From Patescibacteria group bacterium (GTDB lineage: Bacteria; Patescibacteriota; Microgenomatia; UBA10105; UBA927): a stretch of 41,109 nt of DNA. The notes beneath the pieces are model-generated. The model was not told the origin of the DNA. It saw only the letters and a program-made list of their open reading frames with translations, and made no database searches. This document shows positions 2,308 through 36,488 of this stretch, piece after piece (position 1 is the stretch's first letter; the number at the start of each line of letters is the position of its first letter). The stretch spans positions 1 through 41,109 of the forward strand of contig JBBTTM010000011.1 of assembly GCA_038064255.1 (NCBI GenBank). Reading direction: 5' to 3'. A program made the translations under genes and the position numbers.

Positions 2308-2355
2308 TAATAGTCGTACTATGCTTGACGGGTTAGCGTGTATGAAGAAAGCATC

Positions 2356-4704: not shown

Positions 4705-6356
4705 AATTTTTTCAGAAATTATTATTCATCTGCATTATTTTCCTTGCGTTTATGTTTCGATTTTATCGTCTTGCTGAAATTCCTCCGGGAGTAAATAGAG
4801 ACGAAGCAAGTATCGGGTATACGGCATATTCATTGATGCAAACTGGAAAAGATGAATATGGCAAGTTGTTTCCACTTTCGTTTGAATCTTTTGGAGACTG
4901 GAAACTTCCTCTCTATATATATTCAACGATTCCATTTGTGAAGATATTTGGTATGACTGAGGTTGCTGTTCGTTTGCCTTCGGTGCTTGCAGGCACTCTC
5001 ACAGTTGGCGTGTTGTTTGTGCTGGTGCGTATGCTATTTGGATATACATATCTTGCACTTTTATCTTCATTGATTCTGACATTGAGCCCCTGGCATATTC
5101 ACATTTCTCGGGTAGAATCAGAATCAAATGTTGCGATTTTCTTTGTGACCCTTGGCACAGTGATGTTTCTGAAAGCATTGGCTTCAAGACGATTCATATT
5201 ACTGATGATATCCGGTCTCCTTTTCGTTGCTACATATTATACATACCACGGAAATCATATTTTTACTTCCCTCTATGCTGTAGGAATGCTTATGCTTTAT
5301 CGCAGGGAAGTGTTTAAAATTCCGCAATGGTTTATAGCTGCAGGAATTTCGTTTATTTTTTTGGCTATTATTCTGACATTTACATTATTTAGCGCAAATA
5401 AAACTAAAATCTCTGGAATTGGTATTTTTGGAAATCCGAATGTGGTTCATGAAAAAATGGAACTTCCCCGCCTAGGGCATCAGAATCCGGATTCGTTTTT
5501 TTCAAGAATTATTCACAATAGACCTGTCTATACGATTGTAACTATGGGTCAAAATTACTTGAAATCATACTCTCCTGAATTTTTATTCATTAAGGGCGGC
5601 AATAACCACGCTCACAATATAGAAGGGTATGCGAATATGCATCTGTTTGAAAGCATCTTTGTCTTTCTCGGAGTAGTTTTTGTATTTATGAATATAAAAA
5701 AGAGACAATATATACTTCTTTTATGGTGGTTCATCGTTGCAGGCGTTGCACCAGCAATAACCAAAGACGCACCACATAGCAATCGAATGTTTATTGTGAC
5801 TCCAGCACTTTCAATGATCGTTGCTTTGGGAATGAATTATATTTCAGTATTAATGCATTCGAGATGGAAGCTATTGTTACCGATCGTAGTCACGGCTGCA
5901 TATATAGGATCACTTATGCTCTATGCAGATGCATACACGGTTCATTTTCCTTTAAAAGAAGCACAATATTGGGGTTCGTCATATAAACAATTATCTGCAT
6001 TCTTGAACAAGTCTGAGTATGAAAATAAACAGGTGATTATGACGTCGCCTGAGTCATCGCCCTATATATATCTGCTGTTTTATGGAAATTATAGTCCTGT
6101 AAAATACCAGAGAGAAGCAGCGAGATATTCTCTTTCTCGGGATGGATTCAGAGATGTGTCAGGATTTGGAAGATTCTCTTTTCGACCGATCGACTGGGGA
6201 AGAGACCCTTTTGCTCCAAATACCCTTTTGGTTTCGGATATAAAGGAAGTACCTATGGAATTAATTTCCAATATAAAAACAACCATATTTCTTCCGGACG
6301 GTTCAGCGCAATTTGCAGTCATTGAAGCCCCGATACCCATAGTGTTAAAAAAATGA
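4701..6356 (+). CDS. ArnT/PMT-type (GT39/GT83-like) polyprenyl-phosphate-sugar dependent glycosyltransferase
   Basis: 551-aa polytopic protein. The N-terminal loop NRDEASIGYTAYSLMQTGKDEYGKLFPLSFESFGDWKLPLYIY is typical of the PMT_2/ArnT family. It has a 4-nt overlap with the upstream gene. Confidence 0.7.
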   Translation: MKFFQKLLFICIIFLAFMFRFYRLAEIPPGVNRDEASIGYTAYSLMQTGKDEYGKLFPLSFESFGDWKLPLYIYSTIPFVKIFGMTEVAVRLPSVLAGTLTVGVLFVLVRMLFGYTYLALLSSLILTLSPWHIHISRVESESNVAIFFVTLGTVMFLKALASRRFILLMISGLLFVATYYTYHGNHIFTSLYAVGMLMLYRREVFKIPQWFIAAGISFIFLAIILTFTLFSANKTKISGIGIFGNPNVVHEKMELPRLGHQNPDSFFSRIIHNRPVYTIVTMGQNYLKSYSPEFLFIKGGNNHAHNIEGYANMHLFESIFVFLGVVFVFMNIKKRQYILLLWWFIVAGVAPAITKDAPHSNRMFIVTPALSMIVALGMNYISVLMHSRWKLLLPIVVTAAYIGSLMLYADAYTVHFPLKEAQYWGSSYKQLSAFLNKSEYENKQVIMTSPESSPYIYLLFYGNYSPVKYQREAARYSLSRDGFRDVSGFGRFSFRPIDWGRDPFAPNTLLVSDIKEVPMELISNIKTTIFLPDGSAQFAVIEAPIPIVLKK

Positions 6357-6564: not shown

Positions 6565-7461
6565 ATGGATAAAAAATCAAATTATTCTCTCGGTTCTCTT
6601 GCACTTCTTTCCGCGGGCATAGTCGGCGCGTTTGCGGGATTAGGAGCAAAGATTGCATTGAGGGAGTTACCGCCCTTTACTATTCTTTTTACCAGAATTA
6701 TCATCATGCTCGTCGTTCTTTTTCCGTTTGTTTCCCGGAAACTCTCGGTGTTTAAAACACATTGGAAGTCGCTCCTTCTTCTTGGTCTTTTCTGGTCGGG
6801 AAATGTCGCATTTTTTATTGTCGGCATTCGATATACTACGGTATTATCATCAGGCGTGCTTTATGCCGGTGTTCCGCTTCTGACACTGGTTGAGTCTATG
6901 ATTCTTCTGCATACACGTCCAAAGAGAAACCAAATTATCGGAATATCTCTTGGATTACTCGGTATGGGTATATTATTTATGGATTCGGTAAAGGATTTAT
7001 CCTTTGGATTGTTTCAGGGAAATGTGCTTATATTTATTGCAACATTGTCCTGGTCGCTGTATCTATTATATTCCAAGAAATTAAGTGCGAAGATTGATCC
7101 GATTGTGTTGACGGTTTCTTCCGCAGTCGTTGCAAGCATCATTGTTGGATTACTTATGGTATTGTTTGAAGGATATCTGCCGTTTCTATCCATCGGAAGA
7201 TTGCACTTAGAAACCCAGATGGCGCTTTTATTTTTAGGTCTTGGCATTGGAGTCGGTATGATATTTCTGTATCAATATGGTATAAAATACGGATCTGTTG
7301 TTATGGCAAGTATGATGCTTTATATTGGTACGGTTGTCGGAGGACTCACTGGTATAGTCTTTTTACAAGAGAGTCTTACTCTGAAATTTATTATCGGTTC
7401 CCTATGTATATTAATGGGAGTATACTGGGTAGGAATTTCAAAACAAAGGAGTGAGTCATGA
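6565..7461 (+). CDS. EamA/DMT family permease
   Basis: About 10 TM helices in two EamA-like halves. The track ORF starts at 6535 inside the tRNA-derived repeat, so the ATG at 6565 (MDKKSNYSL) is the more plausible start. Confidence 0.75.
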   Translation: MDKKSNYSLGSLALLSAGIVGAFAGLGAKIALRELPPFTILFTRIIIMLVVLFPFVSRKLSVFKTHWKSLLLLGLFWSGNVAFFIVGIRYTTVLSSGVLYAGVPLLTLVESMILLHTRPKRNQIIGISLGLLGMGILFMDSVKDLSFGLFQGNVLIFIATLSWSLYLLYSKKLSAKIDPIVLTVSSAVVASIIVGLLMVLFEGYLPFLSIGRLHLETQMALLFLGLGIGVGMIFLYQYGIKYGSVVMASMMLYIGTVVGGLTGIVFLQESLTLKFIIGSLCILMGVYWVGISKQRSES

Positions 7462-8267
7462 TAAAATTTATACGTTTAGGTATTGGTATTATTTCTTTAT
7501 TTTCATTATTTTTTGTAATTCGAACTCACATATATGCACACGGCGGTGAAGTTCAGTATGTAAAAATAAACAAACAATATATTCCTGAGAATCCTATTGT
7601 AGGTACTATTACCCCTTCAAAATTTACAGTCGGATCTGAAAGTACCACCTCTGCGTATCTTGTCGGAAAAGAGATGCTTTTTGAAATTGACGAGGAAATC
7701 TTTCCGAATTCATCTCCATCTGTGAGACCGATATTTCAGTGGGATTTTTCAGACGGGGGAGAAAAAGCTGAGGGTTCGTCTGTTCGTCATATCTATAAAA
7801 AACCTGGAACGTATATAGTAAAAATTCTTGCGAAGTTTCAGGGAAAAGAAGATGAATTTAAACAGGTAAATACTGTTCAAATTGATGTTATGCCGGAGGA
7901 AAAATATATTCGTCCACGTGCCCGCATAATAGTAAATGGAAAAGAAGTTGAGAACTCAACGCGGGATGTGGTAACTCTCAGTCCAGGTAGAAACATTCTA
8001 TTTGATGCCTCAAAATCGCTAGGAAATATTAAAACATATGAGTGGGATTTTGGTGATTCAAATGGAGGGAAAACTTCCAGAGTATCTCATAGATATCCGA
8101 GGGATGAATTTTATCCTGTGGCAGTTTTGAGAGTAACAGATGATCTGGGTATTTCAAATGATACATATGTATCTCTCGATATGCCATATGTGAATTTAAA
8201 TATTGTCACTAGGCTTTTTTACAGTGTATATGATTTTATAGTCGGTTCTATATTGAAGTTATACTAA
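7458..8267 (+). CDS. Membrane-anchored or secreted protein with two PKD-like domains
   Basis: N-terminal hydrophobic helix, then two repeats with the PKD signature (WDFSDGG...HIYKKPGTYIVKI and WDFGDSNGG...HRYPRDEFYPVAVLRVTDDLG). ATGA overlap with the upstream permease. Confidence 0.7.
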   Translation: MIKFIRLGIGIISLFSLFFVIRTHIYAHGGEVQYVKINKQYIPENPIVGTITPSKFTVGSESTTSAYLVGKEMLFEIDEEIFPNSSPSVRPIFQWDFSDGGEKAEGSSVRHIYKKPGTYIVKILAKFQGKEDEFKQVNTVQIDVMPEEKYIRPRARIIVNGKEVENSTRDVVTLSPGRNILFDASKSLGNIKTYEWDFGDSNGGKTSRVSHRYPRDEFYPVAVLRVTDDLGISNDTYVSLDMPYVNLNIVTRLFYSVYDFIVGSILKLY

Positions 8268-12890: not shown

Positions 12891-13550
12891 ATGGGGAAAA
12901 CTATCCTAACACCCATCCAGCGAAAGGCGATCAGTACAATTGCCGCCGACGCGATTGTAAGAAAACATTTTTATCTATCCGGAGGCACAGCGCTTGCAGA
13001 ATACTATCTCCATCATCGGCTTTCCGAGGATTTGGATTTTTTTAGCGAAAACGAAATCGACGTACAATGGCTCAACACACTTTCCGGTAAAATACAATCC
13101 ACCGTTGGGGCATCGAAAAAAGATCTCCAACAAAGTTTTAACAGGAATCTTGCTTTTTTTACTATTGGAAAAACTATTTTAAAAACTGAGTTTACCTATT
13201 TCCCGTTCACGCAGGTCGAAAAACCGATGATAGCTGACAATCTCCATATAGATTCACTCTTAGATATTGCCGTCAACAAATTCTTTACCATCTATCAACA
13301 ACCCGCTAGCCGCCATTTTATCGACTTATTCTGTATCCTCCAATCATCGGGTATTGCGTGGGATAATCTACCAAAACTTGCTCGAATAAAATTCGATACG
13401 GTTATTGACCCACTGCAATTAGGAAGCCAGTTAATAATTGCAAAAAATATTGGACAACTCCCATGTATGATTCTTCCGGTTAAAGAAACAGCATGGAGAT
13501 CATTCTTTCTTGAAAAAGCGAGGTATCTAAAAAAAGAAATTGGTCAATAA
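12891..13550 (+). CDS. AbiEii/AbiGii-type nucleotidyltransferase (toxin-like, DUF1814 family), short form
   Basis: FYLSGGTALAEYYLHHRLSEDLDFF matches the GGTAL...R.S.DlDf nucleotidyltransferase signature of AbiEii-family proteins. No AbiEi-like wHTH antitoxin gene is visible upstream. Confidence 0.65.
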   Translation: MGKTILTPIQRKAISTIAADAIVRKHFYLSGGTALAEYYLHHRLSEDLDFFSENEIDVQWLNTLSGKIQSTVGASKKDLQQSFNRNLAFFTIGKTILKTEFTYFPFTQVEKPMIADNLHIDSLLDIAVNKFFTIYQQPASRHFIDLFCILQSSGIAWDNLPKLARIKFDTVIDPLQLGSQLIIAKNIGQLPCMILPVKETAWRSFFLEKARYLKKEIGQ

Positions 13551-15860: not shown

Positions 15861-15900
15861 GTATCTTGCAACATCTTGAAGTATCTTGCAACATCTTGCA
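15861..15900 (+). repeat. Tandem 2 x 20-bp repeat (four ~10-bp ATCTTGCAAC-like units) upstream of the Fic gene; candidate operator or promoter element
   Basis: gtatcttgcaacatcttgaa followed by gtatcttgcaacatcttgca; the two units are identical over their first 18 nt. Confidence 0.6.
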
Positions 15901-15921
15901 ATTTGGGATACAGTTGGCTCA

Positions 15922-16899
15922 ATGAAATTTCCACCAATATATATCATATCCACAAAAGCAAGGGAATGTGTCGAGAAATTGAATGCTCATAAATCTTCGT
16001 TTGCCTTACAGAATATAGACCCCTCAGTGCTGATTCACTTACGACGTAAAACGCTTTTAAAAAGTTCTCTCTATTCTGCCCGGATAGAAGGAAATCCATT
16101 AACTCTAGAAGAAATATCTGTTCATGATTCTGATACGGATATTCATATACAGGAAGTCGGAAATCTCGTATCTTCCTATGAAAAATTACCATCAACATTT
16201 ACTCAAGAGATGAACGTTACCCTCTTAAAACAATTCCATAGGTGGATTCTTTCAGGAATAAGTTCTGGTGCCGGTTATTTTAGAAATGAAGAATCTGCAA
16301 TTTTTAATCAAGCAGGAATTGCCGTGTATCTTTCCCCTGCTCCATTTCATGTACCAAGTCTCACCACTGAACTATGTTCATATATTGCATGCTCAAGAGA
16401 TCCGGCTCCGATTACGGCCGCGGTAGCGCATATATGGTTTGAAAAAATTCATCCGTTTCTAGATGGAAATGGAAGAGTAGGCCGGCTGTTATCATCTTGG
16501 ATTCTTTCTCATGGAGGATACGATTTTTCAGGACTTGTATCATTTGAAGAGTATTTAGAGAGTCATAGGAGTGAATATTATTCTGCTCTTGGAAAAGAAA
16601 CACAGGATGTGAGTCTCTTTATAGATTTTTACCTGGAAGCGCTTCACGAGCAAGTTGTAAAAAGTTTTTCAAATATATCAATTGATACTTTAGTTCAAAC
16701 AAATGATCTTCTGCCCAGAAGAGAAGAGATATATAAAACTATTTGTGACCACGGCGTAGTATCATTTGATTTTATCAGGCGTAGATTTCTACGGATTTCC
16801 GAGCGAACATTGCACTATGATGTACAACAACTCATAAAAGAAAAGTATATAACAAAAATAGGGTCAACTCGAGGTGTGTTATATAAAAGAAGGAAGTAA
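15922..16899 (+). CDS. Fic-family protein (AMPylase type) with an N-terminal auto-inhibitory motif and a C-terminal wHTH-like domain
   Basis: Fic core motif HPFLDGNGRVGRLL. Upstream, SARIEGN fits the (S/T)xxxE(G/N) inhibitory helix. The ATG at 15922 (MKFPPIYI) is preferred over the TTG at 15886, which lies inside the tandem repeat. Confidence 0.85.
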   Translation: MKFPPIYIISTKARECVEKLNAHKSSFALQNIDPSVLIHLRRKTLLKSSLYSARIEGNPLTLEEISVHDSDTDIHIQEVGNLVSSYEKLPSTFTQEMNVTLLKQFHRWILSGISSGAGYFRNEESAIFNQAGIAVYLSPAPFHVPSLTTELCSYIACSRDPAPITAAVAHIWFEKIHPFLDGNGRVGRLLSSWILSHGGYDFSGLVSFEEYLESHRSEYYSALGKETQDVSLFIDFYLEALHEQVVKSFSNISIDTLVQTNDLLPRREEIYKTICDHGVVSFDFIRRRFLRISERTLHYDVQQLIKEKYITKIGSTRGVLYKRRK

Positions 16900-27126: not shown

Positions 27127-27576
27127 TTATGTAGAATTGTTTTTTTGAAGATAATTAGTTTCGATCGCCTGGTCTACAGTTTTTCTGCTCCAACCGACGT
27201 GGAGAAGATTCTCTATAATTTGATTCTTGGATAGGTTTGCTTTTTTCGCCTGAGAAATATATTGTTGAAGTTGCGGATTGAATATGGGTATGATTTCTGA
27301 GTTGGATTTATTAATTATTTTGATGAAAGATTCGTATATTATTAATTCAGCGTAACCAGTGAACATCATTAGACCAAATAGAATGCATCCTCCAACACCT
27401 GCTGTACAGATTATGAGTATTGGCAAAAGAGAAATTATTTGACTTTTATCGATATAGGAATCAAGTATTCCAAGTAGAATAAATGTTATTAAACCTAATA
27501 TAAAGGCAATTATATTCCGCTTTTTTTTCGATTCCTTTGTTGAAGTTACAGTTTGTTGTCCCATACAATTCTCCAA
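27127..27576 (-). CDS. Small membrane protein with a soluble helical C-terminal domain
   Basis: 149 aa: a basic N-terminus, 2-3 TM helices, then the tail SKNQIIENLLHVGWSRKTVDQAIE. No family assigned. Confidence 0.5.
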   Translation of the reverse strand: MENCMGQQTVTSTKESKKKRNIIAFILGLITFILLGILDSYIDKSQIISLLPILIICTAGVGGCILFGLMMFTGYAELIIYESFIKIINKSNSEIIPIFNPQLQQYISQAKKANLSKNQIIENLLHVGWSRKTVDQAIETNYLQKNNST

Positions 27577-28625
27577 TATCTGATAACTGATATAGCGAGG
27601 ATCACATATATTGGTATAGCCAGAGCTACTTCTATGGGAATATGTGACAGAGGTGTTTTAAATCCGGAAAAGTTTTGTACGACGGATGAAGTAAACCATC
27701 TCATGCCAGAATTTATGGCAACTCCCTCGATCTGATAAAAGATAAAGCTCCCGGTTATGACATATAGAATGAAATGAGTTAGCGTATCTAATTTTGACGC
27801 TACGAAGTCTACGGCACCGGTAGTGAGTACGATTGTAAAAATCCAGAGAGATATCCGAAGAACATTTATATCTCTATAGATATACGTCCACTCTGGTAAT
27901 CCTTTTGTTACAACGAGCGGGGATATGATAATTTCAAGCAGAAATATCCAAAATGCTGCAGTGAGTAGATTTCTTAGAGTTATTTTATGATGTCCTGGAA
28001 CCAGGAGAGCAGGCGATAGGATGAGAACCCAAAATTTATAAAAACTTATGACAATGCCTGCGAATACCGGGAGATAGAAAAGTATTTCCATTGGAAGTGA
28101 GCCTACCATGCCAAATGAAGTCGAGATTATTTCAGGTGCAAAATATCGGATTCTAAGTGTCGATAAGAGAATTTCGAATACGATTCCAAGAATTAATATG
28201 GGAGGGATATAGATGATAAACCTCTGATGCTCTTTTGTATTTTTAAGTTTTTGATCTATTTGAGTAGTAATAAGGAGAAGAAGTGTGCTCCAGAATAACG
28301 TTATGACCCAGCTTACATCCATATAGATATATCCAAACATACCGAGATGATGTATGTTCCACATCGGAGCGGTAAAAAGCTGGAATAATATAACTCCAGT
28401 ACTCATGATAAAAAATCGTTTGAGAAAGTCAGCAAAGTTTTTCCTAAGATACAGCATATTAAGTACAAAAAAAATTATTACCACAGCAATAAATCCTGTA
28501 CTCATAGGGGTGAGAGTTTTATCGATCTGAGAAACTCCTGGGATGTTGCTACATTTCGGTATTTTTGCACAGAGTTCTAAAAAGAGATTCATACAGATAT
28601 TACGAACACTGACAACTATGGTCAC
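27546..28625 (-). CDS. Polytopic membrane protein of unknown function (apparent internal duplication)
   Basis: 359 aa, about 10 TM helices. Two similar segments carry aromatic W/Y motifs (TAPMWNIHHLGMFGYIYMD and KGLPEWTYIYRD). It overlaps both neighbouring genes, so it looks operonic. Confidence 0.55.
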   Translation of the reverse strand: MTIVVSVRNICMNLFLELCAKIPKCSNIPGVSQIDKTLTPMSTGFIAVVIIFFVLNMLYLRKNFADFLKRFFIMSTGVILFQLFTAPMWNIHHLGMFGYIYMDVSWVITLFWSTLLLLITTQIDQKLKNTKEHQRFIIYIPPILILGIVFEILLSTLRIRYFAPEIISTSFGMVGSLPMEILFYLPVFAGIVISFYKFWVLILSPALLVPGHHKITLRNLLTAAFWIFLLEIIISPLVVTKGLPEWTYIYRDINVLRISLWIFTIVLTTGAVDFVASKLDTLTHFILYVITGSFIFYQIEGVAINSGMRWFTSSVVQNFSGFKTPLSHIPIEVALAIPIYVILAISVIRYWRIVWDNKL

Positions 28626-29766
28626 TCACGTCTTTGCTGTTTCTGGTAGTGCTATCTTTTATTTTACACCCTCCCCACTTAGAAGATGCAAATTGTTCAT
28701 GTGAAGTCATTCGTTCCCACACTTTATACAAAGGTTCATCCAGAACATTTCCAAATATTGCATGGTTAAAATCACAGGACATCATCTCCCCATACGGGGA
28801 TATATAACAGTAACTCGCTCCGCACGAACAACCCACGCTTCTGTGGCTTGTAACGTATGCATAGACTAATATTCCGGGATACGTGAGATTTTCATTGTAC
28901 TGTTTCACATGCCTTATCATGTCTTCTACCCAATCGTGATTATCTATGAGGTCTTTTCTTTTTTTATATCTTCCTGTTGGCATGGCGTCAAAGACGATAA
29001 CTTCATGAACACCGAGGGTTTTTGCAAGCTCGATGATTTTGTCCAGTTCTCCTGATCTATAGCTTTCAGGGGTCATAGTCGTTGAAATACCGACTGACAT
29101 ACCGGTTTTTTTCGCTTCGAGGATTCCCTGAATAGCTTTATCATATAGTCCTTTAGATTTGCGGAAAAAATCGTGTTTCGCAGGATTGGCTGCATCTATA
29201 CTGACATACACTCCGTCGAGTCCATTTTGACGAAGAATATGTGCCATTTTTTTCAGAAGTGATCCGTTTGTAAAAAGAGCTGTAGAGCTCGTGGTTTTAT
29301 CGACACAGTTTATAATTTCCGGAAGATCTTCCCGAAGGAGCGGTTCTCCGCCGACAAAATTTATCATAGAAACCCCTAGTTCCTGAGCTTCTTTGATTAT
29401 CTGCTTGGCTTGATCCAGTGTAACTGTTTTTTTCTTTGGATTGTGTACTCCCTGGAAAAAACTACAATGTTCGCACGCAGCGTCACATGTATCGTTTACG
29501 GCAAAACTCATCAGATTAGGCATATTTTTATTCTGTACAGTTCGGTAAAAACTTCGTGCAACAAGATGTGCCATGGGTTTACTAAATACCGCGGGTGTTG
29601 ACAGGGAGTAGACAGGGTACCCGTCGCGGTAATGAATCACTTTTTCGTGGTTGAGATATATTTTATAAAAAAGTTTGATGTAGTCATAAGTGTAAGGAAT
29701 CGATTGTTTCGCGATAAAATATCGAAGCTTAATCGCAGAAATAATTTTATGAAATACGTTTGTCAT
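28600..29766 (-). CDS. Radical SAM enzyme with a C-terminal SPASM/twitch-like Cys cluster
   Basis: CxxxCxxC motif (NDTCDAACEHCSF), a GGEPLL glycine-rich SAM motif, and C-terminal GCSCGASYCYISPYGEMMSCDF ... GGCKIKD. Confidence 0.8.
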   Translation of the reverse strand: MTNVFHKIISAIKLRYFIAKQSIPYTYDYIKLFYKIYLNHEKVIHYRDGYPVYSLSTPAVFSKPMAHLVARSFYRTVQNKNMPNLMSFAVNDTCDAACEHCSFFQGVHNPKKKTVTLDQAKQIIKEAQELGVSMINFVGGEPLLREDLPEIINCVDKTTSSTALFTNGSLLKKMAHILRQNGLDGVYVSIDAANPAKHDFFRKSKGLYDKAIQGILEAKKTGMSVGISTTMTPESYRSGELDKIIELAKTLGVHEVIVFDAMPTGRYKKRKDLIDNHDWVEDMIRHVKQYNENLTYPGILVYAYVTSHRSVGCSCGASYCYISPYGEMMSCDFNHAIFGNVLDEPLYKVWERMTSHEQFASSKWGGCKIKDSTTRNSKDVSDHSCQCS

Positions 29767-29841: not shown

Positions 29842-30687
29842 ATGAAATGGATCCTATATTTTCGGGAACGATTTCCCATGCATTTGTTGCTTCTTTTTTG
29901 TTTTCTCTCAGTAAGGAGTATTTATTTTGACTTGGTACGTCCAAGAGAATTATTCGCGCTTACAATATTGTATCTCTTGTTTTTTTTATACCTCAGAATT
30001 CTAGATGAGTTTAAGGATTTTCGCTACGACAAGACACATCATAAAGATCGTCCGCTACAGCGGGGATTAGTTTCAAAAAAAGATTTGCTGATTCTTCTTT
30101 TCGTAACATTTTTAAGTATGGTAGCTTGTGTGTTTTTCCTGGGAGGTATATGGGTTTTTGCAGTGTTTGTCTTTTTGTATACACTCTGTATGTTCAAGGA
30201 GTTTTTTTGCCACGACTGGTTAAAAAAGCATATAGTCATATATTTGGTAAGTCACGAGATTGTGTTTGTGCCGCTCTGGATATATATATTTTCAGTCGTA
30301 ATGGGGGGATATCAATTCATACTTGATGCAAGCCATGTTTTTTTACTTATATATATGATTTTACCGGTTGTCATTATGGAAATTGGAAGAAAGATGGTGC
30401 ATAGAGTAAGTCACAAGGGTATCCAAACGAGTGATACATATGCGTATGAGTGGGGAGAAGGACAGGCCATATTTGTATTTTCCGCATTATTTATTGTCGG
30501 CGGAGTCATAGGTTGGAATACAGGGTTAATACGATCGAGTGGAATAATATTCATTTTTTCTTTTGGTGTATTTTGTTTAGTTATGCTGTACCAAAATCTA
30601 AAAGTTTTCGTAAAAAATTACTTATTATTTACATTCTTCGGAACGTTATTGCTTCCATGTATGTTGCTTTTTTTTCGCTATGATTAA
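29842..30687 (+). CDS. UbiA-superfamily prenyltransferase-like membrane protein
   Basis: 281 aa, about 8 TM helices. The first Asp-rich motif is LDEFKDFRYD, followed by DRPLQRGLVS (RPLxxG), as in UbiA/DGGGP-synthase-type enzymes. The second Asp motif is degenerate (SDTYAYEWGEG). Confidence 0.55.
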   Translation: MKWILYFRERFPMHLLLLFCFLSVRSIYFDLVRPRELFALTILYLLFFLYLRILDEFKDFRYDKTHHKDRPLQRGLVSKKDLLILLFVTFLSMVACVFFLGGIWVFAVFVFLYTLCMFKEFFCHDWLKKHIVIYLVSHEIVFVPLWIYIFSVVMGGYQFILDASHVFLLIYMILPVVIMEIGRKMVHRVSHKGIQTSDTYAYEWGEGQAIFVFSALFIVGGVIGWNTGLIRSSGIIFIFSFGVFCLVMLYQNLKVFVKNYLLFTFFGTLLLPCMLLFFRYD

Positions 30688-32359
30688 ATATACGATCTGG
30701 GATAAAACAAATATCGGAGAAAATTATCCGGGAATTACCAGCCCTCTCACATATTCATTTGTGAGACGCTCATATCAGGCTGTATATAAAAATTTTTGTC
30801 TTCGCATAGGAGTAAGTCCTACTGAAATTCGGGAAAAAAATTATATTTTTGAAAATCTGGTAGGGCATATACACGGCCAGTTGTATTATAATCTGCGCTC
30901 TTGGTATGAATTGTTGTCCTTTCTCCCCGGAGAAAGACAGACCAGCACTTGGTTTGACACGATGCTTGATCCGGTTGTTCGTCGATCAATTCATGAAATA
31001 ACGGATAGAAAATATTCATTTCCCTTTCGGATATACCGTATATATATAGGTGTTCGTTTTGCAATCCTCAGTGTTTTATTCCCGATTCTAAGAAGAGAAT
31101 TTGATAGAAAAAGTTCTGTTTTGTTTTCTTCCGGATATTCTGCACATTTTTCACAGATGATTGATCAGGAATTAATCGGATGGTTTAGAGTCTTAGAAGA
31201 TCGTTTTTTGTCTGTATGGGCAATACCCATAATAAATGATTTCCGTCTCATGGTGTCATACGGAATGTTGGTTCAAGCTTCTCGGTTATGGGTGTCTGAT
31301 CCAGATGAAGTGTTGCGTCGATTGTCTACGTATAAAAGTATGCCCATCAGCGTTATCATCCTTCGTGATTCACAGCATATAGCAAACATGATACGAGAAA
31401 CTCCTCTCTATTTCAGTTTATTTCAAAAGACCGATGCGACAGAAGTTTGGAAAAAATTGTCACACCCATCATTCAGAGATCTAAAGTATTTGATAGATGC
31501 TTATCTTGAACAGTATGGAGACCGTATGGCAAATGAATTAAAGCTTGAAGAGCCAAGTTTTCAGGAAAATCCGATCCGCTTTATAGAACTTTTAAAAAGA
31601 TATGCCAAAAATAAGAAAATAATCCAAAAGGACCGGACTCTTTTTTCTGAAACATCAAAACATTGGTGGCAACGCTTAATCTTATATTCACTGACTCGGT
31701 ATGTGTCTGACGCTATGCATCAGAGGGAATTATTCCGGTTGAGACGGTTACAGGCGTTTAGAGTTGCAAAAAATGTTTATCTTGAATGTGCACGTAGATT
31801 TGTAAACCGGAAAAAATTACATACATCTCAGGATATTTTTTTTCTGACTCATGATGAGATTATGGACAGTGCTCTTCATCCTTCCCTGGCTGGCTCGTTA
31901 TTTTCTCTTGTTCAAAAAAGAAAACATATTCAGTCTGAATATGCAAAATATATACTCCCACAATTGGTTCTGACTGACTCTTCAGGGACTATTGTCAGAC
32001 AAAAAGTTCAATCTAAGATAAGCGTAAAGAAGAATAGAAATTTATCAGGAAAGCCGGCTTCAGCGGGGACTAGGGAAGGAGAAGTTGTCGTTATGGATAC
32101 GCTTGACACGAAAACAGATATAGCTGGGAAGATATTAATTACTAAAACTACAGACCCAGGGTGGACTATATTGTTTCCACTACTTTCCGGAGTGATAACT
32201 CAGTATGGGGGCATGCTGTCTCATGCTGCTATAGTCGCGCGGGAGCTTGAGATACCATGCATAGTCGGAGTGTCGGGAGTGACGGAATTATTAAAATCTG
32301 GTGATAGAATTTTCATGAATGGTACTACGGGAGAGATCCACCGGCTAGAAAAAGTATGA
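30680..32359 (+). CDS. PEP-utilizing-enzyme swivel (phosphohistidine) domain protein with a rifampin-phosphotransferase-like central domain and no ATP-grasp domain
   Basis: The C-terminus ILITKTTDPGWTILFPLLSGVITQYGGMLSHAAIVARELEIPCIVGV is the mobile His domain. The N-terminus NIGENYPGITSPLTYSF ... GQLYYNLRSWYELLSFLPG resembles the substrate-binding domain of PpsA/RPH-like proteins. Confidence 0.65.
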   Translation: MIKYTIWDKTNIGENYPGITSPLTYSFVRRSYQAVYKNFCLRIGVSPTEIREKNYIFENLVGHIHGQLYYNLRSWYELLSFLPGERQTSTWFDTMLDPVVRRSIHEITDRKYSFPFRIYRIYIGVRFAILSVLFPILRREFDRKSSVLFSSGYSAHFSQMIDQELIGWFRVLEDRFLSVWAIPIINDFRLMVSYGMLVQASRLWVSDPDEVLRRLSTYKSMPISVIILRDSQHIANMIRETPLYFSLFQKTDATEVWKKLSHPSFRDLKYLIDAYLEQYGDRMANELKLEEPSFQENPIRFIELLKRYAKNKKIIQKDRTLFSETSKHWWQRLILYSLTRYVSDAMHQRELFRLRRLQAFRVAKNVYLECARRFVNRKKLHTSQDIFFLTHDEIMDSALHPSLAGSLFSLVQKRKHIQSEYAKYILPQLVLTDSSGTIVRQKVQSKISVKKNRNLSGKPASAGTREGEVVVMDTLDTKTDIAGKILITKTTDPGWTILFPLLSGVITQYGGMLSHAAIVARELEIPCIVGVSGVTELLKSGDRIFMNGTTGEIHRLEKV

Positions 32360-32949
32360 AATATTTTCGATTACTTCGTATAGCAGATGGGATAAGCATG
32401 ATCTCTCTCGTATTTGCATTCAATAGTATTTCTAAAATTTATGAGGGTTCGGCGAAATGGTCTATACTTTATTTTCTCATAGCGTTTTTATTTGATCTTT
32501 TGGATGGATATGTCTCAAGGAGATTTCAGATGGGCGGTGAGCTGGGTAGAATTATAGACTCTATAGTAGATTTTTTTACGTATTGTATTTTTTCAGCATA
32601 TTTTATCGTCCGATTTATAAATCCTAATCAATTTATTGGGTATGTGTGTGCGAGTTTCATAGTAGTTCTTGGTGCAATACGGCTTTCGAGATTTGTAAAA
32701 GTTGGCGTTTTGAAAGATTCATCAGGTTTATATTATCGTGGAATTACTGTTGTTCATGTGGCCCTGCTCATTGTTCTTTCATATCTTATTCCAATGTTTA
32801 GATCTGGAATTCCGGCAATCCTAGTGCAACTTGCAATTATTCTTTTTTCAGTTGGTATGTTGTCACAATATAAAAGCAGAAAAGTATCATCTGGGATATT
32901 AGCATTCGGCATAATAATTATTTTTGTGACAGTGTTAGTAACTTTTTAA
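32356..32949 (+). CDS. CDP-alcohol phosphatidyltransferase (PssA / archaetidylserine-synthase-size class)
   Basis: FDLLDGYVSRRFQMGGELGRIIDSIVD matches D-G-x2-(A/S)-R-x8-G-x3-D-x3-D. 197 aa, about 6 TM helices. Confidence 0.8.
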   Translation: MKYFRLLRIADGISMISLVFAFNSISKIYEGSAKWSILYFLIAFLFDLLDGYVSRRFQMGGELGRIIDSIVDFFTYCIFSAYFIVRFINPNQFIGYVCASFIVVLGAIRLSRFVKVGVLKDSSGLYYRGITVVHVALLIVLSYLIPMFRSGIPAILVQLAIILFSVGMLSQYKSRKVSSGILAFGIIIIFVTVLVTF

Positions 32950-32954
32950 TCGGT

Positions 32955-33446
32955 ATGAAGATGATTTATTCTACAAAAAGTAAAATACCGTCTCATGTTT
33001 TGTCAGAACATATATATACATCAATACAAAATGAAAAAATTTTAACAAACCGAAATAGAGAATATATTCAAACTTTTTTAAAAAAGAATTGTATATATAT
33101 GGCATTTGACGCGAACAATACAACAAAACCTATCGGATTTATATTTAGTCATGAAATAACTAATGGTATTGTAGAGCTGCAGAGTTTGTGGGTGGATCCG
33201 CTATGTCGAAAACGTGGAATTGCCAAGAGACTCATTGCCGATGCAACGCAAAATAGACAGAAGAAGTATGTAACCGCGCTCGTACAGCCATTTTTATCAT
33301 CAGTATTCTTAGAACAAGGGTTTAAAAAGGTAGATATTTATATTACACCTTTAGGTATATTACTTAGATATCTATTAAGAAAGTCTTTGTTTGATATTTT
33401 AAATTTTAGTCGGAAATCAGAGAGTGCTTTATATATAAAAATATGA
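32955..33446 (+). CDS. GNAT-family N-acetyltransferase
   Basis: Motif A LQSLWVDPLCRKRGIAKRLI, followed by FLEQGFKKV. Confidence 0.7.
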   Translation: MKMIYSTKSKIPSHVLSEHIYTSIQNEKILTNRNREYIQTFLKKNCIYMAFDANNTTKPIGFIFSHEITNGIVELQSLWVDPLCRKRGIAKRLIADATQNRQKKYVTALVQPFLSSVFLEQGFKKVDIYITPLGILLRYLLRKSLFDILNFSRKSESALYIKI

Positions 33447-34030
33447 TTGCAATCATAATAATCGGAATCGTCATATATTTGTTGCTCTTACTTGAGTGGA
33501 TATACCGCAGCGGATTTATACATGCAGAATATTCGCGAAAGATAGCGCATGTATTAGCATGCTGCATTGCAGCGGCAGCTTCCCAGATTCTGAGTCGGGA
33601 TGTATTTATATACATAAATATATTATTCGTTGTTATATTTCTGTATATACGGTGGAAAAAAATATTAGTAAGTATAGAAGGTGTGGATCGGTTCACGTAT
33701 GGTAGCGTTTGTTTACCACTTGGATTTATAGTTATAGGAATTTTTTTATACAGCAGAGTATATGAGATGCTGATTGGACTTGCTATTGTCGGTATTGCTG
33801 ATACGTGTGCAGGATTTGTACGATATAGATTTAAACTTCCAAAAAGCAGCTGGATTGCTTTTGTTATAGTATGGGTTTGTTCTTTTGCTACTTCCCGATT
33901 CATATTCGGAAATATCCAGTCACTGCTCATTGCAAGCTTGGTGTCTATGGCTGAAGTTCTATCCGGGTATGGAACCGACAATCTGACGATACCTCTCGTG
34001 TATGCTTTGTTAGTTTATTTTTTTAAATGA
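33443..34030 (+). CDS. CTP-dependent polyprenol/phytol/dolichol-kinase-like membrane protein (CdsA superfamily)
   Basis: 195 aa, about 6 TM helices, with SRKIAHVL, IVGIADTCAGFVRYRF and AEVLSGYGTDNLTIPL, resembling kinase-type members of the cytidylyltransferase family. Confidence 0.5.
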   Translation: MIAIIIIGIVIYLLLLLEWIYRSGFIHAEYSRKIAHVLACCIAAAASQILSRDVFIYINILFVVIFLYIRWKKILVSIEGVDRFTYGSVCLPLGFIVIGIFLYSRVYEMLIGLAIVGIADTCAGFVRYRFKLPKSSWIAFVIVWVCSFATSRFIFGNIQSLLIASLVSMAEVLSGYGTDNLTIPLVYALLVYFFK

Positions 34031-34551
34031 AGGGAAACCATAAGCATATCTGTAGCTTGATGGAGAAATATTCCCACGAAAACGGCAACCAAAATACTTT
34101 GTAGAGAAAAAGTAAATATAAAATAATACATGACTCCGACAGAGAATAATCCATCTGTCGTATCTATAATTCTGGTCAGTATTTGATAGGGTTTTTTTGG
34201 GGGATGCGATCCGGGAGGAATACCGAACCGCCGTTTTACAAAACTGTTCGGCAATTCTCCGATGTGATAGGCGCATCCGACGAGGGCAAAACGAAAAACA
34301 ATTTGCATTGGGCTCATGACTGAAGGATAAAAAATTGCATAGACTATGTATCCCCAAAATGCAGTTGATACCGACATCACCAATGGACCTCGTAACGTTT
34401 TATTTTTACCGAAGATAGGTTTTCCGAATAAAGTACATCCACCATCAAGAGGAATATTTAGTATATAGGAAAGTGAACTTTTTAAGAAGAAAATAAAAGT
34501 GATACCTCCGAGAAAAACAGGAATCACCATGGTAAAAATTTCATGTATCAC
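34015..34551 (-). CDS. CDP-archaeol synthase (CarS, DUF46)-like protein
   Basis: IPLDGGCTLFGKPIFGKNKTLRGPL and GELPNSFVKRRFGIPPGS ... IIDTTD align by eye with the two conserved CarS blocks (P-I-D-x-G ... G-K-x-I-L-G-x-x-K-T-x-R-G, and G-D-L-x-x-S-F-I-K-R-R-x-G ... D-Q). 178 aa, about 5 TM helices. Confidence 0.65.
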   Translation of the reverse strand: MIHEIFTMVIPVFLGGITFIFFLKSSLSYILNIPLDGGCTLFGKPIFGKNKTLRGPLVMSVSTAFWGYIVYAIFYPSVMSPMQIVFRFALVGCAYHIGELPNSFVKRRFGIPPGSHPPKKPYQILTRIIDTTDGLFSVGVMYYFIFTFSLQSILVAVFVGIFLHQATDMLMVSLHLKK

Positions 34552-34600: not shown

Positions 34601-35125
34601 TTAGTCTCCGCATTCTACGCTTTTTTTTGACTGAGTCTCGATATATTCCCGTGTCACTTTTTGATCGAGAAGTTTTTCGTCGTTCTCTCCGACAAAGACG
34701 ACGAGACTATCATCTGGACGGATAGGAATTTTTTGGAAATCTGATACTTTTTCCCCGTTTATATACCCTGCAGTTTTGGCATAGTCCATCGGAAATTTTA
34801 TGTTGGTAAAGAGATCCTGCCAGAATGCGTCCCGCGCTTCTATATGTACCAAGTCTCCGACATTATCGTGGAGATGCGCTTTTTCTAATTGGATATTTTC
34901 ACTGTTTGTATCTTCTTTACCGTTTGTAAGACAGGGTTTTAGGAACATAAACTTGGTATCCGAAAAATCCAGTTTTTTGTTTTGATCAAATACGACAAAA
35001 CCTGCATGGTAGTGGATTTTTTCCGCTGGAATTGGTTTTGCAGTTGGAAGCAGTTTCTTTGCACCAAAAACACCAAGGAAAAGAACGCTTATTGAAAAGA
35101 TAAACAGCAGCTTTGTTTTATTCAT
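34601..35125 (-). CDS. Secreted or anchored hypothetical protein (His-rich motifs)
   Basis: Signal/TM sequence (LLFIFSISVLFLGVFGA), then HYHAGFVVF and AHLHDNVGDLVHIE. A C-terminal paralogue remnant lies at 36575-36693. Confidence 0.55.
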   Translation of the reverse strand: MNKTKLLFIFSISVLFLGVFGAKKLLPTAKPIPAEKIHYHAGFVVFDQNKKLDFSDTKFMFLKPCLTNGKEDTNSENIQLEKAHLHDNVGDLVHIEARDAFWQDLFTNIKFPMDYAKTAGYINGEKVSDFQKIPIRPDDSLVVFVGENDEKLLDQKVTREYIETQSKKSVECGD

Positions 35126-35215
35126 GTATCGCTTTTTTTATCCTCAATATGAGAGTTGAGTCATTATATCAAAAAGAGTGGGTTTGTTATTCAGGGGTAT
35201 TTTTGTTAGTATAAA

Positions 35216-35345
35216 TGTGCATCAAGAGTGGCGGAGATATTCCGCCCGGCAACCGAGACTTTATACAAAGAACACGGTGCTAAAAATCTTAAGAGGATTG
35301 ATGTGGTATGAATCGTTCTTACGGTTCATACAAAAATATATTTGT
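35216..35345 (+). ncRNA. SAM riboswitch-like leader (SAM-I core with a shortened P2; SAM-I/IV-like) controlling metK
   Basis: The sequence catcaagagtggcggagatattccgcccggcaacc ... acggtgctaa ... aatcttaagaggattgatg carries the conserved AUCAAGAG, GGCAACC and GGUGCUAA blocks. P1 pairs catc(aa) with (tt)gatg. Confidence 0.55.
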
Positions 35346-35375
35346 ACTCCTCTTAAGTTTGAGAGGAGTTTTTTT
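35346..35375 (+). terminator. Intrinsic terminator (expression platform of the SAM leader)
   Basis: The 8-bp stem pairs actcctct with agaggagt, with an 8-nt loop and a T run running into the metK ATG. The 5' arm tcctcttaag (35348-35357) is perfectly complementary to cttaagagga (35288-35297) in the aptamer 3' side, which is anti-terminator logic. Confidence 0.6.
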
Positions 35376-36488
35376 ATGCAAAAAGATTTTATTTTTACCT
35401 CAGAATCAGTCTGTGCAGGGCACCCGGATAAAATTTGCGATCAGATTTCCGATGCGATAGTCGATGCGGTATTGAGCATTGATCCCTATGGCAGAGTTGC
35501 TATTGAGACATTGGTAAGTGAAAATCAGGTGGTCATTGCGGGCGAGGTGACCTCCGAAAAAAAAGTGAACTATGAAAAAATAGCCAGACGGGAAATAAAA
35601 CGGCTCGGGTACACAGAACCATTGTATCGGTTTACTGACAATTCACCGGTATATGTAAACGTTCATGAACAATCTTGTGAAATTGCACAGGGTGTAGATG
35701 AGGCCGGGGCAGGGGATCAGGGGATGATGTTTGGGTATGCCACAGATGAATCGACGAATTTCATGCCGCTACCCATAGAGCTTGCTCACTGCTTGGCGAT
35801 GCGTCTGGATGAGGTACGGGAATCTGGTCTGCTTTCATATCTTAGACCCGACGGGAAGACACAGGTGAGCATACGGTATAAAAATAATAAACCCGCAGAA
35901 GTGACAAGCGTAGTCATAGCGGTTCCTCATAGTGAAAAAGTAAAACTTCATCAAGTTAAATCAGATGTATTTCAAAGTGTGGTTCATTGGGTATTAGATA
36001 CATATGGGTTTACTTTTTTTGCGAAAGACTTGGTAGTAAACGGTACCGGAGTGTGGCATATCGGCGGACCTGCATCAGACACGGGTGTGACAGGACGAAA
36101 GATTGTTGTAGATACATACGGAGGCTTCGCGCGAGTAGGCGGCGGGGCTTTTTCCGGGAAAGACCCGACGAAAGTTGACCGATCCGGCGCGTATGCCGCG
36201 CGTTTTATAGCTAAAAACATTGTGGCCCATGGGTTGGCGAAAAAAGCTGAGGTGAGACTTGCGTATGTCATAGGGGTCAAAAAACCTCTGATGCAGGAGG
36301 TAGAAACGTTTGGTACAGAAACGGTTTCTTTTAAGATACTGCGCGAGTTTGTTTCACGGCTTATTGATACGTCGGTATCCGGCATTATAAAAAAGCTTGA
36401 TCTTAGAAAGCCGCAATATTTAACTACGGCCGCGTATGGCCACTTTGGCAGAGAGGGATTTAATTGGGAAAAAATTGAGAAAAATTGA
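35376..36488 (+). CDS. metK: S-adenosylmethionine synthetase
   Basis: FTSESVCAGHPDKICDQISDAIVDAVL, GAGDQGMMFGYA and GGGAFSGKDPTKVDRSGAYAARF are canonical MetK blocks. The start at ATG 35376 gives 370 aa; the track ORF starts upstream inside the leader. Confidence 0.9.
   Translation: MQKDFIFTSESVCAGHPDKICDQISDAIVDAVLSIDPYGRVAIETLVSENQVVIAGEVTSEKKVNYEKIARREIKRLGYTEPLYRFTDNSPVYVNVHEQSCEIAQGVDEAGAGDQGMMFGYATDESTNFMPLPIELAHCLAMRLDEVRESGLLSYLRPDGKTQVSIRYKNNKPAEVTSVVIAVPHSEKVKLHQVKSDVFQSVVHWVLDTYGFTFFAKDLVVNGTGVWHIGGPASDTGVTGRKIVVDTYGGFARVGGGAFSGKDPTKVDRSGAYAARFIAKNIVAHGLAKKAEVRLAYVIGVKKPLMQEVETFGTETVSFKILREFVSRLIDTSVSGIIKKLDLRKPQYLTTAAYGHFGREGFNWEKIEKN

Follow-up and report, generated by a model that had tools for sequence, protein, structure and literature searches.

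The CarS-like gene and its relatives

We analyzed a stretch of 41,109 nucleotides (nt) from a Patescibacteria group bacterium (contig JBBTTM010000011.1 of assembly GCA_038064255.1, positions 1 to 41,109 of the forward strand; hereafter the window), which carries on its minus strand a gene resembling CarS, the CDP-archaeol synthase of archaea. The host markers in the window are bacterial (DnaG primase, RpoD, a bacterial-type MetK, an L,D-transpeptidase and an M23 peptidase). The sequence, the profile matches and the predicted fold of its product all identify the gene as a true member of the CarS-like family, and sequence comparison places its product in a widespread bacterial sister clade of the archaeal CDP-archaeol synthases. 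The gene, its conserved motifs and the gene directly upstream of it are as follows.

34015-34551, minus strand: CarS-like gene of the bacterial clade, 178 amino acids (aa) from the GTG at 34551; predicted CTP:lipid-phosphate cytidylyltransferase
34387-34452, minus strand: motif PLDGGCTLFGKPIFGKNKTLRG (P-x-D ... G-x-x-K-T-x-x-G), common to archaeal CarS and present here in the bacterial form NKTLRG
34222-34260, minus strand: motif GELPNSFVKRRFG, counterpart in the bacterial clade of the archaeal G-D-x3-S-F-x-K-R-R-x-G
34153-34167, minus strand: motif IDTTD, a D-x-x-D pair that aligns with LDQLD of Aeropyrum CarS
34601-35125, minus strand: 174-aa protein that has a hydrophobic segment at its N terminus and matches no family, 49 nt directly upstream of the CarS-like gene

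The open reading frame (ORF) that a first-pass annotation of this DNA had assigned to CarS is present on the minus strand with the motifs quoted there, the second conserved block and IDTTD exactly so, and the first block with a spacer of four residues where that annotation had written five. An alternative start used by other gene callers, the ATG at 34530, would yield a protein of 171 aa, and neither start is preceded by a clear Shine-Dalgarno sequence. The profile search that the annotation had proposed, against Pfam PF01864, returned a match above the gathering score (30.7 bits versus 22, E = 3.8e-7, model positions 29-171 of 175). In GenBank the protein (MEK7591858.1) is named 'MAG: CDP-archaeol synthase [Patescibacteria group bacterium]'. 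An identical protein is encoded on six independent groundwater contigs, and the carriers include Hainich groundwater contigs and assembly GCA_964363025.1.

Structural comparison places the protein in the same family. A single-sequence search matched it to Aeropyrum CarS (5GUF), the sole solved CarS, with an E-value of 0.094, and a profile built from the window protein and 20 relatives matched this crystal structure with an E-value of 2e-9. The profile alignment lines up the elements P-x-D, GxxKTxxG, G[DE]xxxSFxKRRxG and DxxD together with an H and a K, and the core motifs P-x-D, GxxKT, SFxKRR and DxxD are aligned and conserved in the archaeal clade, the bacterial clade and the window protein. 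All 26 columns that are invariant in the family alignment are kept in the window protein. Its AlphaFold model (pLDDT 90.5, pTM 0.84) has five long helices (residues 2-24, 47-67, 74-101, 113-139 and 143-166), and a Foldseek search with this model found 5GUF as the top and only significant match (E = 5e-4, probability 1.00, TM-score 0.62/0.66), with CdsA (4Q2E/4Q2G) second at a probability of 0.8. On the profile of the CdsA family itself, PF01148 (CTP_transf_1), the protein stayed below the gathering score of 24 with 20.9 bits, and the match was confined to residues 50-111, a span that includes the GELPNSFVKRRFG motif.

The same protein stands apart from archaeal CarS. It scored 49 bits against a cut-off of 148 on the NCBIfam CarS equivalog model (NF003114, EC 2.7.7.67), and 53 bits on a hidden Markov model (HMM) of 119 archaeal CarS sequences, on which archaeal sequences score ~190. 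Neighbor-joining trees were built from 119 archaeal CarS (ApCarS seed) and 162 full-length relatives of the window protein, with the caveat that they are distance-based and that two seeds supplied the sequences. The sequences split cleanly (119 archaeal and 0 bacterial-type on one side), with the window protein in the second set, and a bootstrapped subsample recovered the bacterial-type clade in 91 of 100 replicates and its split from the archaeal set in all 100. The two sets also carry different motif variants, these being PAYxAN, DGRRxLGDGKT, GDxxGSF and LLDQLDF in archaea and NKTLRG, GELPNSFVKRR and DxxDS in the bacterial clade.

A phmmer search of 1.84 billion cluster representatives recovered 783 relatives at E <=1e-3 and 293 at E <=1e-10, and a scan of one genome per GTDB species recovered 285, the best 80 of which are all from bacteria. 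The species scan relied on clade-specific peptide patterns and is blind to archaeal CarS, a bias from which the phmmer ranking and the trees are free. Among these best 80 of 285, the closest species-level relative is found in a Moranbacteria genome, like the window a member of the candidate phyla radiation (CPR), and further relatives come from Myxococcota, Chloroflexi, Planctomycetota, Acidobacteriota, Gemmatimonadota, Bacteroidota, Lachnospiraceae and Oscillospiraceae, with Butyrivibrio sp. XPD2006, Oribacterium spp. and Arhodomonas sp. AD133 as cultured carriers. A plasmid collection contained no CarS-like relative. Recent acquisition from archaea is ruled out by the clade structure, and the GC content of the gene cluster described below (0.36) is near that of the window (0.35-0.45).

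The first-pass annotation had regarded the gene as CarS, an archaeal signature enzyme. The CarS-like family and the lipid-gene surroundings stand; the identity with the archaeal signature enzyme does not, given the equivalog score, the separate clade and a gene context of its own. The phylogeny with archaeal CarS that it called for, here run by neighbor joining, bears out the relatedness but not a placement among archaeal CarS. The best homologs are uncharacterized bacterial proteins, which that annotation would have taken as evidence against CarS had they been unrelated to it, but these proteins are still related to CarS.

We also observed an intermediate group of CarS sequences that branches between both clades, scoring 120-163 bits on the archaeal HMM and 100-131 bits on the bacterial HMM. 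Its members lie on metagenome contigs (L095, L103-L105, L109, L112, L135, L137, L138, L140, L149, L156 and L164), next to genes for PlsC acyltransferase, tandem CDP-alcohol phosphatidyltransferases, radical SAM proteins of ~500 aa and a DAGK_cat kinase. The searchable literature, which is incomplete, contained no description of the bacterial clade, of its cluster, of a bacterial CarS or of PF01864/DUF46 in bacteria.

The six-gene cluster and its convergent junction

The CarS-like gene meets tail to tail a plus-strand series of five genes, the last of which encodes a 195-aa membrane protein that we refer to as K195. The features of this series are listed here.

29842-30687, plus strand: UbiA-family prenyltransferase, 281 aa, first gene of the operon (PF01040, 35.3 bits versus a gathering score of 34.2)
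30004-30030, plus strand: Asp-rich motif DEFKDFRYD of the UbiA protein
30680-32359, plus strand: Rph-like PEP-utilizer dikinase, 559 aa (PF00391, 86 bits; best PDB matches 5HV2 and 5FBS)
32356-32949, plus strand: CDP-alcohol phosphatidyltransferase, 197 aa (PF01066, 45.6 bits versus a gathering score of 22)
32503-32571, plus strand: motif DGYVSRRFQMGGELGRIIDSIVD (D-G-x2-A/S-R-x8-G-x3-D-x3-D), the canonical motif of this transferase family
32955-33446, plus strand: GNAT acetyltransferase, 163 aa (Pfam Acetyltransf_10/_1; 30% identity to the same-position Moranbacteria gene, E = 3e-15)
33443-34030, plus strand: K195, a 195-aa multi-pass membrane protein, 'hypothetical protein' in GenBank
34015-34030, both strands: 3'-3' overlap of the CarS-like and K195 genes, exactly 16 nt

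All six genes recur in the Moranbacteria locus (L014) with order and orientation unchanged, at 30-37% identity each. The 174-aa gene upstream of the CarS-like gene, which is probably co-transcribed with it from a promoter-like site at 35190-35163 (minus strand), is kept on sister contigs and is not found in the Moranbacteria cluster.

Among solved structures, the best relative of the UbiA family profile is the archaeal digeranylgeranylglyceryl phosphate (DGGGP) synthase 6M31 (E = 6.5e-9, nearly full length), with chlorophyll synthase a close second over a shorter stretch. The best NCBIfam models for the CDP-alcohol phosphatidyltransferase are those of archaetidylserine synthase (66 bits versus a cut-off of 240), barely above PssA and like it below cut-off. 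We predict that this enzyme consumes the CDP-lipid, probably with serine as its specific alcohol. Pfam scans found no acyltransferase or acyl-activating gene in the cluster, and phosphatidylserine decarboxylase is absent from the window. The DGGGP synthase-like UbiA gene is present in the cluster, and the search for the earlier archaeal steps covered only the 41 kb of the window, among whose scanned ORFs there is no geranylgeranylglyceryl phosphate (GGGP) synthase and no glycerol-1-phosphate (G1P) dehydrogenase.

The dikinase of the window keeps the swivel-His motif GGMLSHAAI (32207-32233) and the substrate-binding part of the protein, and it is without the ATP-grasp N-domain of ~290 aa: it aligns to residues 295-859 of its 864-aa Moranbacteria ortholog (L014, 10242-12836), and its NCBIfam alignments begin at about model position 320, with scores far below every equivalog cut-off. 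Most other bacterial loci encode full-length dikinases (median ~840 aa), and on a sister groundwater contig (L002) the gene is split into parts of 364 and 194 aa. The truncated gene may be decaying, or its product may be charged in trans. A domain loss and a split gene next door would also suit a CarS-like ORF that is itself a decaying or non-functional remnant of a transferred gene, but we consider this extremely improbable, as the invariant positions are all intact, the identical protein recurs on the six groundwater contigs, the full-length model is confident and the cluster is syntenic with that of a distant CPR genome.

The stop codons of the convergent pair, TGA at 34028-34030 for K195 and TAA for the CarS-like gene (34015-34017 on the plus strand), confirm the 16-nt overlap claimed in the first-pass annotation. 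It is the only overlap among the six convergent gene pairs of the window, the others lying 15-50 nt apart. Stop codons set the 3' ends, which makes overlaps comparable between loci, and tail-to-tail overlap was found in 7 of 8 convergent CarS-like/K195 pairs from three phyla (-16 nt in the window, -18 in L014, -11 in L016, -6 in L024, -70 in each of L045, L054 and L083, and a gap of +33 in L025). The overlap is a recurring state and not peculiar to this contig. No terminator-like site was found within it.

That annotation had further expected transcriptional interference or antisense pairing, by which the expression of the two lipid genes would become mutually exclusive. The reality of the overlap, its singularity in the window, its recurrence elsewhere and the absence of a terminator-like site between the two genes are all compatible with such a function. 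We nevertheless judge it very unlikely, because the same partners are fused in other organisms and are co-directional in another locus (L050), which implies joint rather than alternative expression. In addition, the overlap region has no unusual RNA structure (z-scores 0.02 and -0.55), its length varies, and short 3' overlaps are expected in compact genomes.

On the other side of the cluster, a gene for a radical SAM/SPASM protein (28600-29766, minus strand) and two genes for proteins with no family match (27546-28625 and 27127-27576, minus strand) are divergent from the UbiA operon across a gap of 75 nt. Of 80 other loci, only 3 have a homolog of the radical SAM protein close to the CarS-like gene, and a link of this gene to the lipid cluster is doubtful.

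Gene context, fusions and the proposed pathway

For the 80 bacterial loci, ORFs were called and clustered, the clusters were named with Pfam, and the families were re-counted with family HMMs within 8 kb of the CarS-like gene. The resulting counts are given below.

Rph-like PEP-utilizer dikinase: 67 of 80 loci
DgkA, directly upstream of the CarS-like gene: 19 of 80
K195 (195-aa family): 9 of 80
At least one of Rph-like dikinase, DgkA and K195: 74 of 80
Kinase-type gene or PlsC at most 300 nt from the CarS-like gene: 69 of 80
UbiA-like prenyltransferase: 61 of 80
CDP-alcohol phosphatidyltransferase: 43 of 80
Acyl-AMP ligase: 34 of 80
Fatty-acid-desaturase-like protein: 32 of 80
Methyltransferase: 32 of 80
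PlsC: 30 of 80
Acyl carrier protein (ACP)-reductase: 23 of 80
GNAT-containing protein: 21 of 80
Phosphatidylserine decarboxylase, after the CDP-alcohol phosphatidyltransferase: 17 of 80

In seven loci, by the clustering count, a hydroxymethylglutaryl-CoA (HMG-CoA) reductase is fused to an APH-type kinase domain. Gene order follows the host group.

Gut Firmicutes and Bacteroidota: DgkA > CarS-like > CDP-alcohol phosphatidyltransferase > phosphatidylserine decarboxylase > UbiA > dikinase > (AMP ligase) > GNAT
Planctomycetota, Acidobacteriota and Gemmatimonadota: CDP-alcohol phosphatidyltransferase > desaturase > CarS-like > dikinase > short UbiA-like > methyltransferase > PlsC > AMP ligase > ACP-reductase
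Deltaproteobacteria: HMG-CoA reductase > dikinase > UbiA > CDP-alcohol phosphatidyltransferase > phosphatidylserine decarboxylase > CarS-like
Chloroflexi and Dormibacteraceae: CDP-alcohol phosphatidyltransferase > CarS-like, convergent with K195

In four Chloroflexi loci (L016, L024, L025 and L054, each at ~7050-7870), the motif DWLDGPIARRLGTSELGATLDIEADS of CDP-alcohol phosphatidyltransferases is found in the gene immediately upstream of the CarS-like one. These genes clustered apart from the other transferases of this family, and with the CarS-like gene and the convergent K195 gene they form a minimal set of three.

As a control, we used 43 loci that surround archaeal-type CarS and span at least 8 kb, taken from a metagenome scan with the window protein, which had returned mainly archaeal-type CarS. 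The dikinase, DgkA, K195 and UbiA families were found in none of these 43 loci, and CDP-alcohol phosphatidyltransferase and PlsC were found in four and three of them, respectively.

Fusion proteins tie the CarS-like domain to the same partners. Among the 13 longest proteins of the top 150 relatives, it is joined to PlsC in seven, to DgkA in one and to K195 in three (P0158, P0196 and P0141), with K195 at residues 3-203 (E = 3e-39) and the CarS-like domain at 212-400 of P0158. PlsC and DgkA both yield a lipid monophosphate, and lipid monophosphates are what CarS and CdsA act on. These fusions thus couple the CarS-like domain to makers of lipid phosphates, and K195 presumably makes a lipid monophosphate as well. 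The convergent adjacency of K195 and the CarS-like gene is conserved in Moranbacteria, Chloroflexi and Dormibacteraceae, and from the fusions and this adjacency we conclude that K195 is a functional partner of the CarS-like enzyme. As some relatives adjoin genes for acyl-AMP ligase, ACP-reductase and PlsC, we considered whether the cluster is the Myxococcus elb ether-lipid operon and rejected this, since elb, whose ElbB and ElbD proteins are a HAD-like phosphohydrolase and a multidomain protein, respectively (PMC9131029), has no CarS-like, UbiA or dikinase gene.

Drawing on the family, fold, core residues, clade, context and fusions described above, we think it probable that the protein is a kinase-coupled CTP:lipid-phosphate cytidylyltransferase feeding the neighboring head-group transferase, and we propose the reaction, the order of steps, a kinase role for K195 and the nature of the lipid as follows. 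An adjacent or fused partner, which would be K195 and/or the dikinase in the window and DgkA, dikinase or PlsC elsewhere, would first make a lipid monophosphate from a lipid alcohol or lysolipid. The five-helix membrane cytidylyltransferase, with the CarS/CdsA catalytic core, would then turn lipid monophosphate and CTP into CDP-lipid and pyrophosphate, and the CDP-alcohol phosphatidyltransferase (32356-32949) would swap CMP for a head-group alcohol, probably serine. The GNAT protein may modify the head group. The UbiA prenyltransferase suggests a lipid with at least one isoprenoid chain.

Several points weigh against this proposal, some of them concerning K195, which we infer to be a lipid kinase. 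Pfam and NCBIfam searches with nine K195 members (E up to 10), a PDB search with K195 family profiles and a Foldseek search with the K195 model (pLDDT 78) all returned no match, and hhalign of K195 against the CarS-like profile gave a probability of 0.3%; the label 'polyprenol-kinase-like' that the first-pass annotation had given to this neighbor therefore finds no backing in any of these searches. The family has invariant strings (R-K-x-x-H, V-x-R-x-T-x-G-E, G-x-x-D-x-x-x-G and Y-G-x-D-N-L-x-x-P), and its members also show G-x-A-D-x-x-A-x-x-x-G, to which the Chloroflexi and fusion members add K-S-x-E-G-S. These strings resemble those of CTP-dependent prenol and diacylglycerol (DAG) kinases, a membership that the searches do not support. 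K195 also occurs in clusters that have no CarS-like gene and contain a UbiA protein, a full-length Rph-like dikinase, DUF3419, a K195-containing protein and an AMP-binding enzyme (L011, L012, L013 and L174, the last of these being plasmid NZ_CP121116.1, 126273-136689, of the cultured Roseinatronobacter sp. S2), so that K195 may act earlier, in building the lipid core. We take DUF3419 to be BtaA-like and involved in betaine-lipid synthesis, and the clusters that contain it may be a phosphate-free counterpart of the same lipid pathway. Beyond K195, the window dikinase may be inactive without its ATP-grasp domain, a canonical CdsA is possible elsewhere in a genome of which only 41 kb are visible, and the searchable literature contains no assay of any member of the bacterial clade. 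The lipid signals are also divided, as UbiA and, in some phyla, HMG-CoA reductase indicate an isoprenoid whereas PlsC, AMP ligase and DgkA indicate an acyl-glycerol.

The first-pass annotation had in essence read the gene as a true CDP-archaeol synthase acting on DGGGP supplied by the neighboring UbiA protein, in which case a CPR bacterium would make archaeal-type diether phospholipids. Family membership and fold are consistent with this, as are the kinship of the UbiA family to the archaeal DGGGP synthase and the preference of the CDP-alcohol phosphatidyltransferase for archaetidylserine synthase models, and the combination of UbiA, CarS-like protein and serine transferase (with a decarboxylase in other phyla) mirrors the archaeal series of DGGGP synthase, CarS, archaetidylserine synthase and archaetidylserine decarboxylase (PMC9385802). 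We find it unlikely all the same. The equivalog model scored the protein far under its cut-off, the clade is separate and has different motif variants without the archaeal PAYxAN, and the window shows neither GGGP synthase nor G1P dehydrogenase. Fusions to PlsC and DgkA and near-constant kinase partners would be unexpected for an enzyme whose substrate already has the phosphate of G1P, and the archaetidylserine synthase scores are themselves far below cut-off and barely above those of PssA.

The PlsC and DgkA partners lend themselves instead to a stand-in for CdsA that converts phosphatidic acid (PA) into CDP-DAG, by which scavenged DAG or lysolipids would become the cell's own phospholipids; PA would come from the partner kinase or from acylation, and UbiA and the dikinase would be passengers. 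Both fused enzymes are producers of PA, DgkA lies directly upstream in 19 loci, the clusters often include genes for PlsC, acyl-AMP ligase and fatty-acid desaturase, there is the weak PF01148 signal, and yeast Dgk1 is a precedent for a CTP-dependent DAG kinase of the cytidylyltransferase superfamily (PMC2459266). We hold this explanation to be possible but doubtful, as UbiA-like genes, present in 61 of the 80 loci and at fixed positions, are not passengers. Cultured carriers such as Lachnospiraceae and Bacteroides are expected to have a canonical CdsA too, which counts against a stand-in and favors a specialized lipid. Acyltransferase and acyl-activating genes are, moreover, missing from the window cluster. 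In purified form, archaeal CarS discriminates against PA (PMC9385802), and a PA enzyme is therefore not the default for this fold.

Within the favored proposal of a kinase-coupled cytidylyltransferase, a hybrid isoprenoid/acyl lipid would reconcile the two divided signals, though this is speculative. A broader claim, which we advance as a tentative idea more likely wrong than right, is that the cluster serves many bacteria in the assembly and activation of a glycerophospholipid that contains isoprenoids and is archaeal-like or hybrid, in a kinase-dependent and G1P-independent manner. On this route, which would not be that of archaea, the DGGGP synthase-like UbiA would prenylate a non-phosphorylated acceptor, the Rph-like dikinase, DgkA or K195 would add the phosphate, the CarS-like enzyme would make the CDP-lipid, and the serine transferase, with or without the decarboxylase, would add the head group.

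The bacterial sister clade of CarS is large, comprising 783 representatives of clusters formed at 50% identity and occurring in at least 285 species-level genomes, with an operon logic and Rosetta-stone fusions of its own. If it does activate a prenylated or otherwise unusual lipid, this would constitute a new class of bacterial membrane lipids, and CPR bacteria, whose lipid supply is not settled, would gain a way to make their own head-grouped lipids. If the archaeal-like or hybrid lipid is real, its cluster would bridge the lipid divide in a widespread fashion that depends on kinases and not on G1P, with carriers among CPR bacteria, Chloroflexi, Planctomycetota, Acidobacteriota, Gemmatimonadota and cultured gut and rumen Lachnospiraceae and Bacteroides. 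An alternative CDP-DAG synthase would be a modest finding. In either case the cultured carriers make the function of the clade directly testable.

Elsewhere in the window, two adjoining large membrane proteins (2338-4704 and 4701-6356, plus strand) have YfhO and PMT (dolichyl-phosphate-mannose-protein mannosyltransferase) matches. Enzymes of the YfhO and PMT types use polyprenyl-phosphate-linked sugars and would add another need for polyprenyl phosphate. A SAM-I/IV riboswitch (RF01725, 46.6 bits versus a gathering score of 41.1) lies at 35214-35347 on the plus strand, and a terminator-like hairpin (35346-35369) with a T-run directly precedes the ATG of metK (35376-36488, plus strand), which encodes a bacterial-type protein of 370 aa; the GTG start at 35178 given for metK in the ORF list is spurious. 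An AbiEii-type toxin nucleotidyltransferase (12891-13550, plus strand), a Fic-domain protein (15886-16899, plus strand) and a fusion of a DsbD transmembrane domain and thioredoxin (88-1839, plus strand) are encoded by accessory genes unrelated to the lipid cluster.

Comparison with known systems

The dikinase of the cluster resembles rifampin phosphotransferase (Rph) in its Rph_4th and PEP-utilizers swivel-His domains, with 5HV1-3 and 5FBS-U as solved relatives, and the window copy differs in the missing ATP-grasp domain and in NCBIfam scores far under the equivalog cut-offs. We take these structures to be those of Listeria rifampin phosphotransferase, which phosphorylates a hydroxyl on a hydrophobic molecule. 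K195 is, like yeast Dgk1, the dolichol kinase Sec59, the phytol kinase VTE5 and prenol kinases, a small multi-pass membrane protein, though the searches lend no support to membership of their superfamily. Known CTP-dependent lipid kinases are small multi-pass membrane proteins that phosphorylate DAG or prenols (PMC2459266; bioRxiv 10.1101/2023.07.17.549440).

CarS and CdsA carry out the same CTP transfer onto a lipid phosphate (PMC9385802, PMC4244643). The CarS-like protein shares its superfamily and, as predicted, its type of reaction with CdsA (Thermotoga maritima 4Q2E/4Q2G, PF01148), and the weak PF01148 signal runs over S-F-x-K-R-R. The two differ in size, the CarS-like proteins having ~170-190 aa and five helices and CdsA ~260-270 aa, and the TM-score between them is only 0.3-0.4.

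In the literature CarS is treated as an archaeal enzyme that is specific for DGGGP (unsaturated archaetidic acid) and that maintains the lipid divide jointly with CdsA (PMC9385802, PMC4244643). A study that looked for archaeal lipid genes in bacteria detected no CarS in Cloacimonetes genomes (PMC7852524). The window protein has PF01864, the predicted five-helix fold and the conserved core in common with archaeal CarS (Aeropyrum pernix ApCarS, 5GUF; Archaeoglobus fulgidus AfCarS), the chemistry is presumably the same, and in the archaeal pathway, as in the proposed one, a CDP-alcohol phosphatidyltransferase comes next. It differs in being bacterial, in an identity of only ~21-25%, in the absence of the PAYxAN, DGRRxLGDGKT and LLDQLDF variants, and in the kinase or acyltransferase partners or fusions of its clade. 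In archaea the phosphate arrives with G1P, whereas in the bacterial clade we propose that it comes from an adjacent or fused enzyme.

The closest parallel to the cluster as a whole is the archaeal module of DGGGP synthase, CarS, archaetidylserine synthase and decarboxylase, the same four families being held by bacterial clusters in one operon (PMC9385802). The bacterial clusters differ from this module in that no GGGP synthase or G1P dehydrogenase is seen and in that they add an Rph-like dikinase, DgkA or K195, and often an acyl-AMP ligase, PlsC, a desaturase, a methyltransferase or a GNAT protein. These extra partners suggest that the lipid core differs from the archaeal one, may be a hybrid and receives its phosphate from a kinase.

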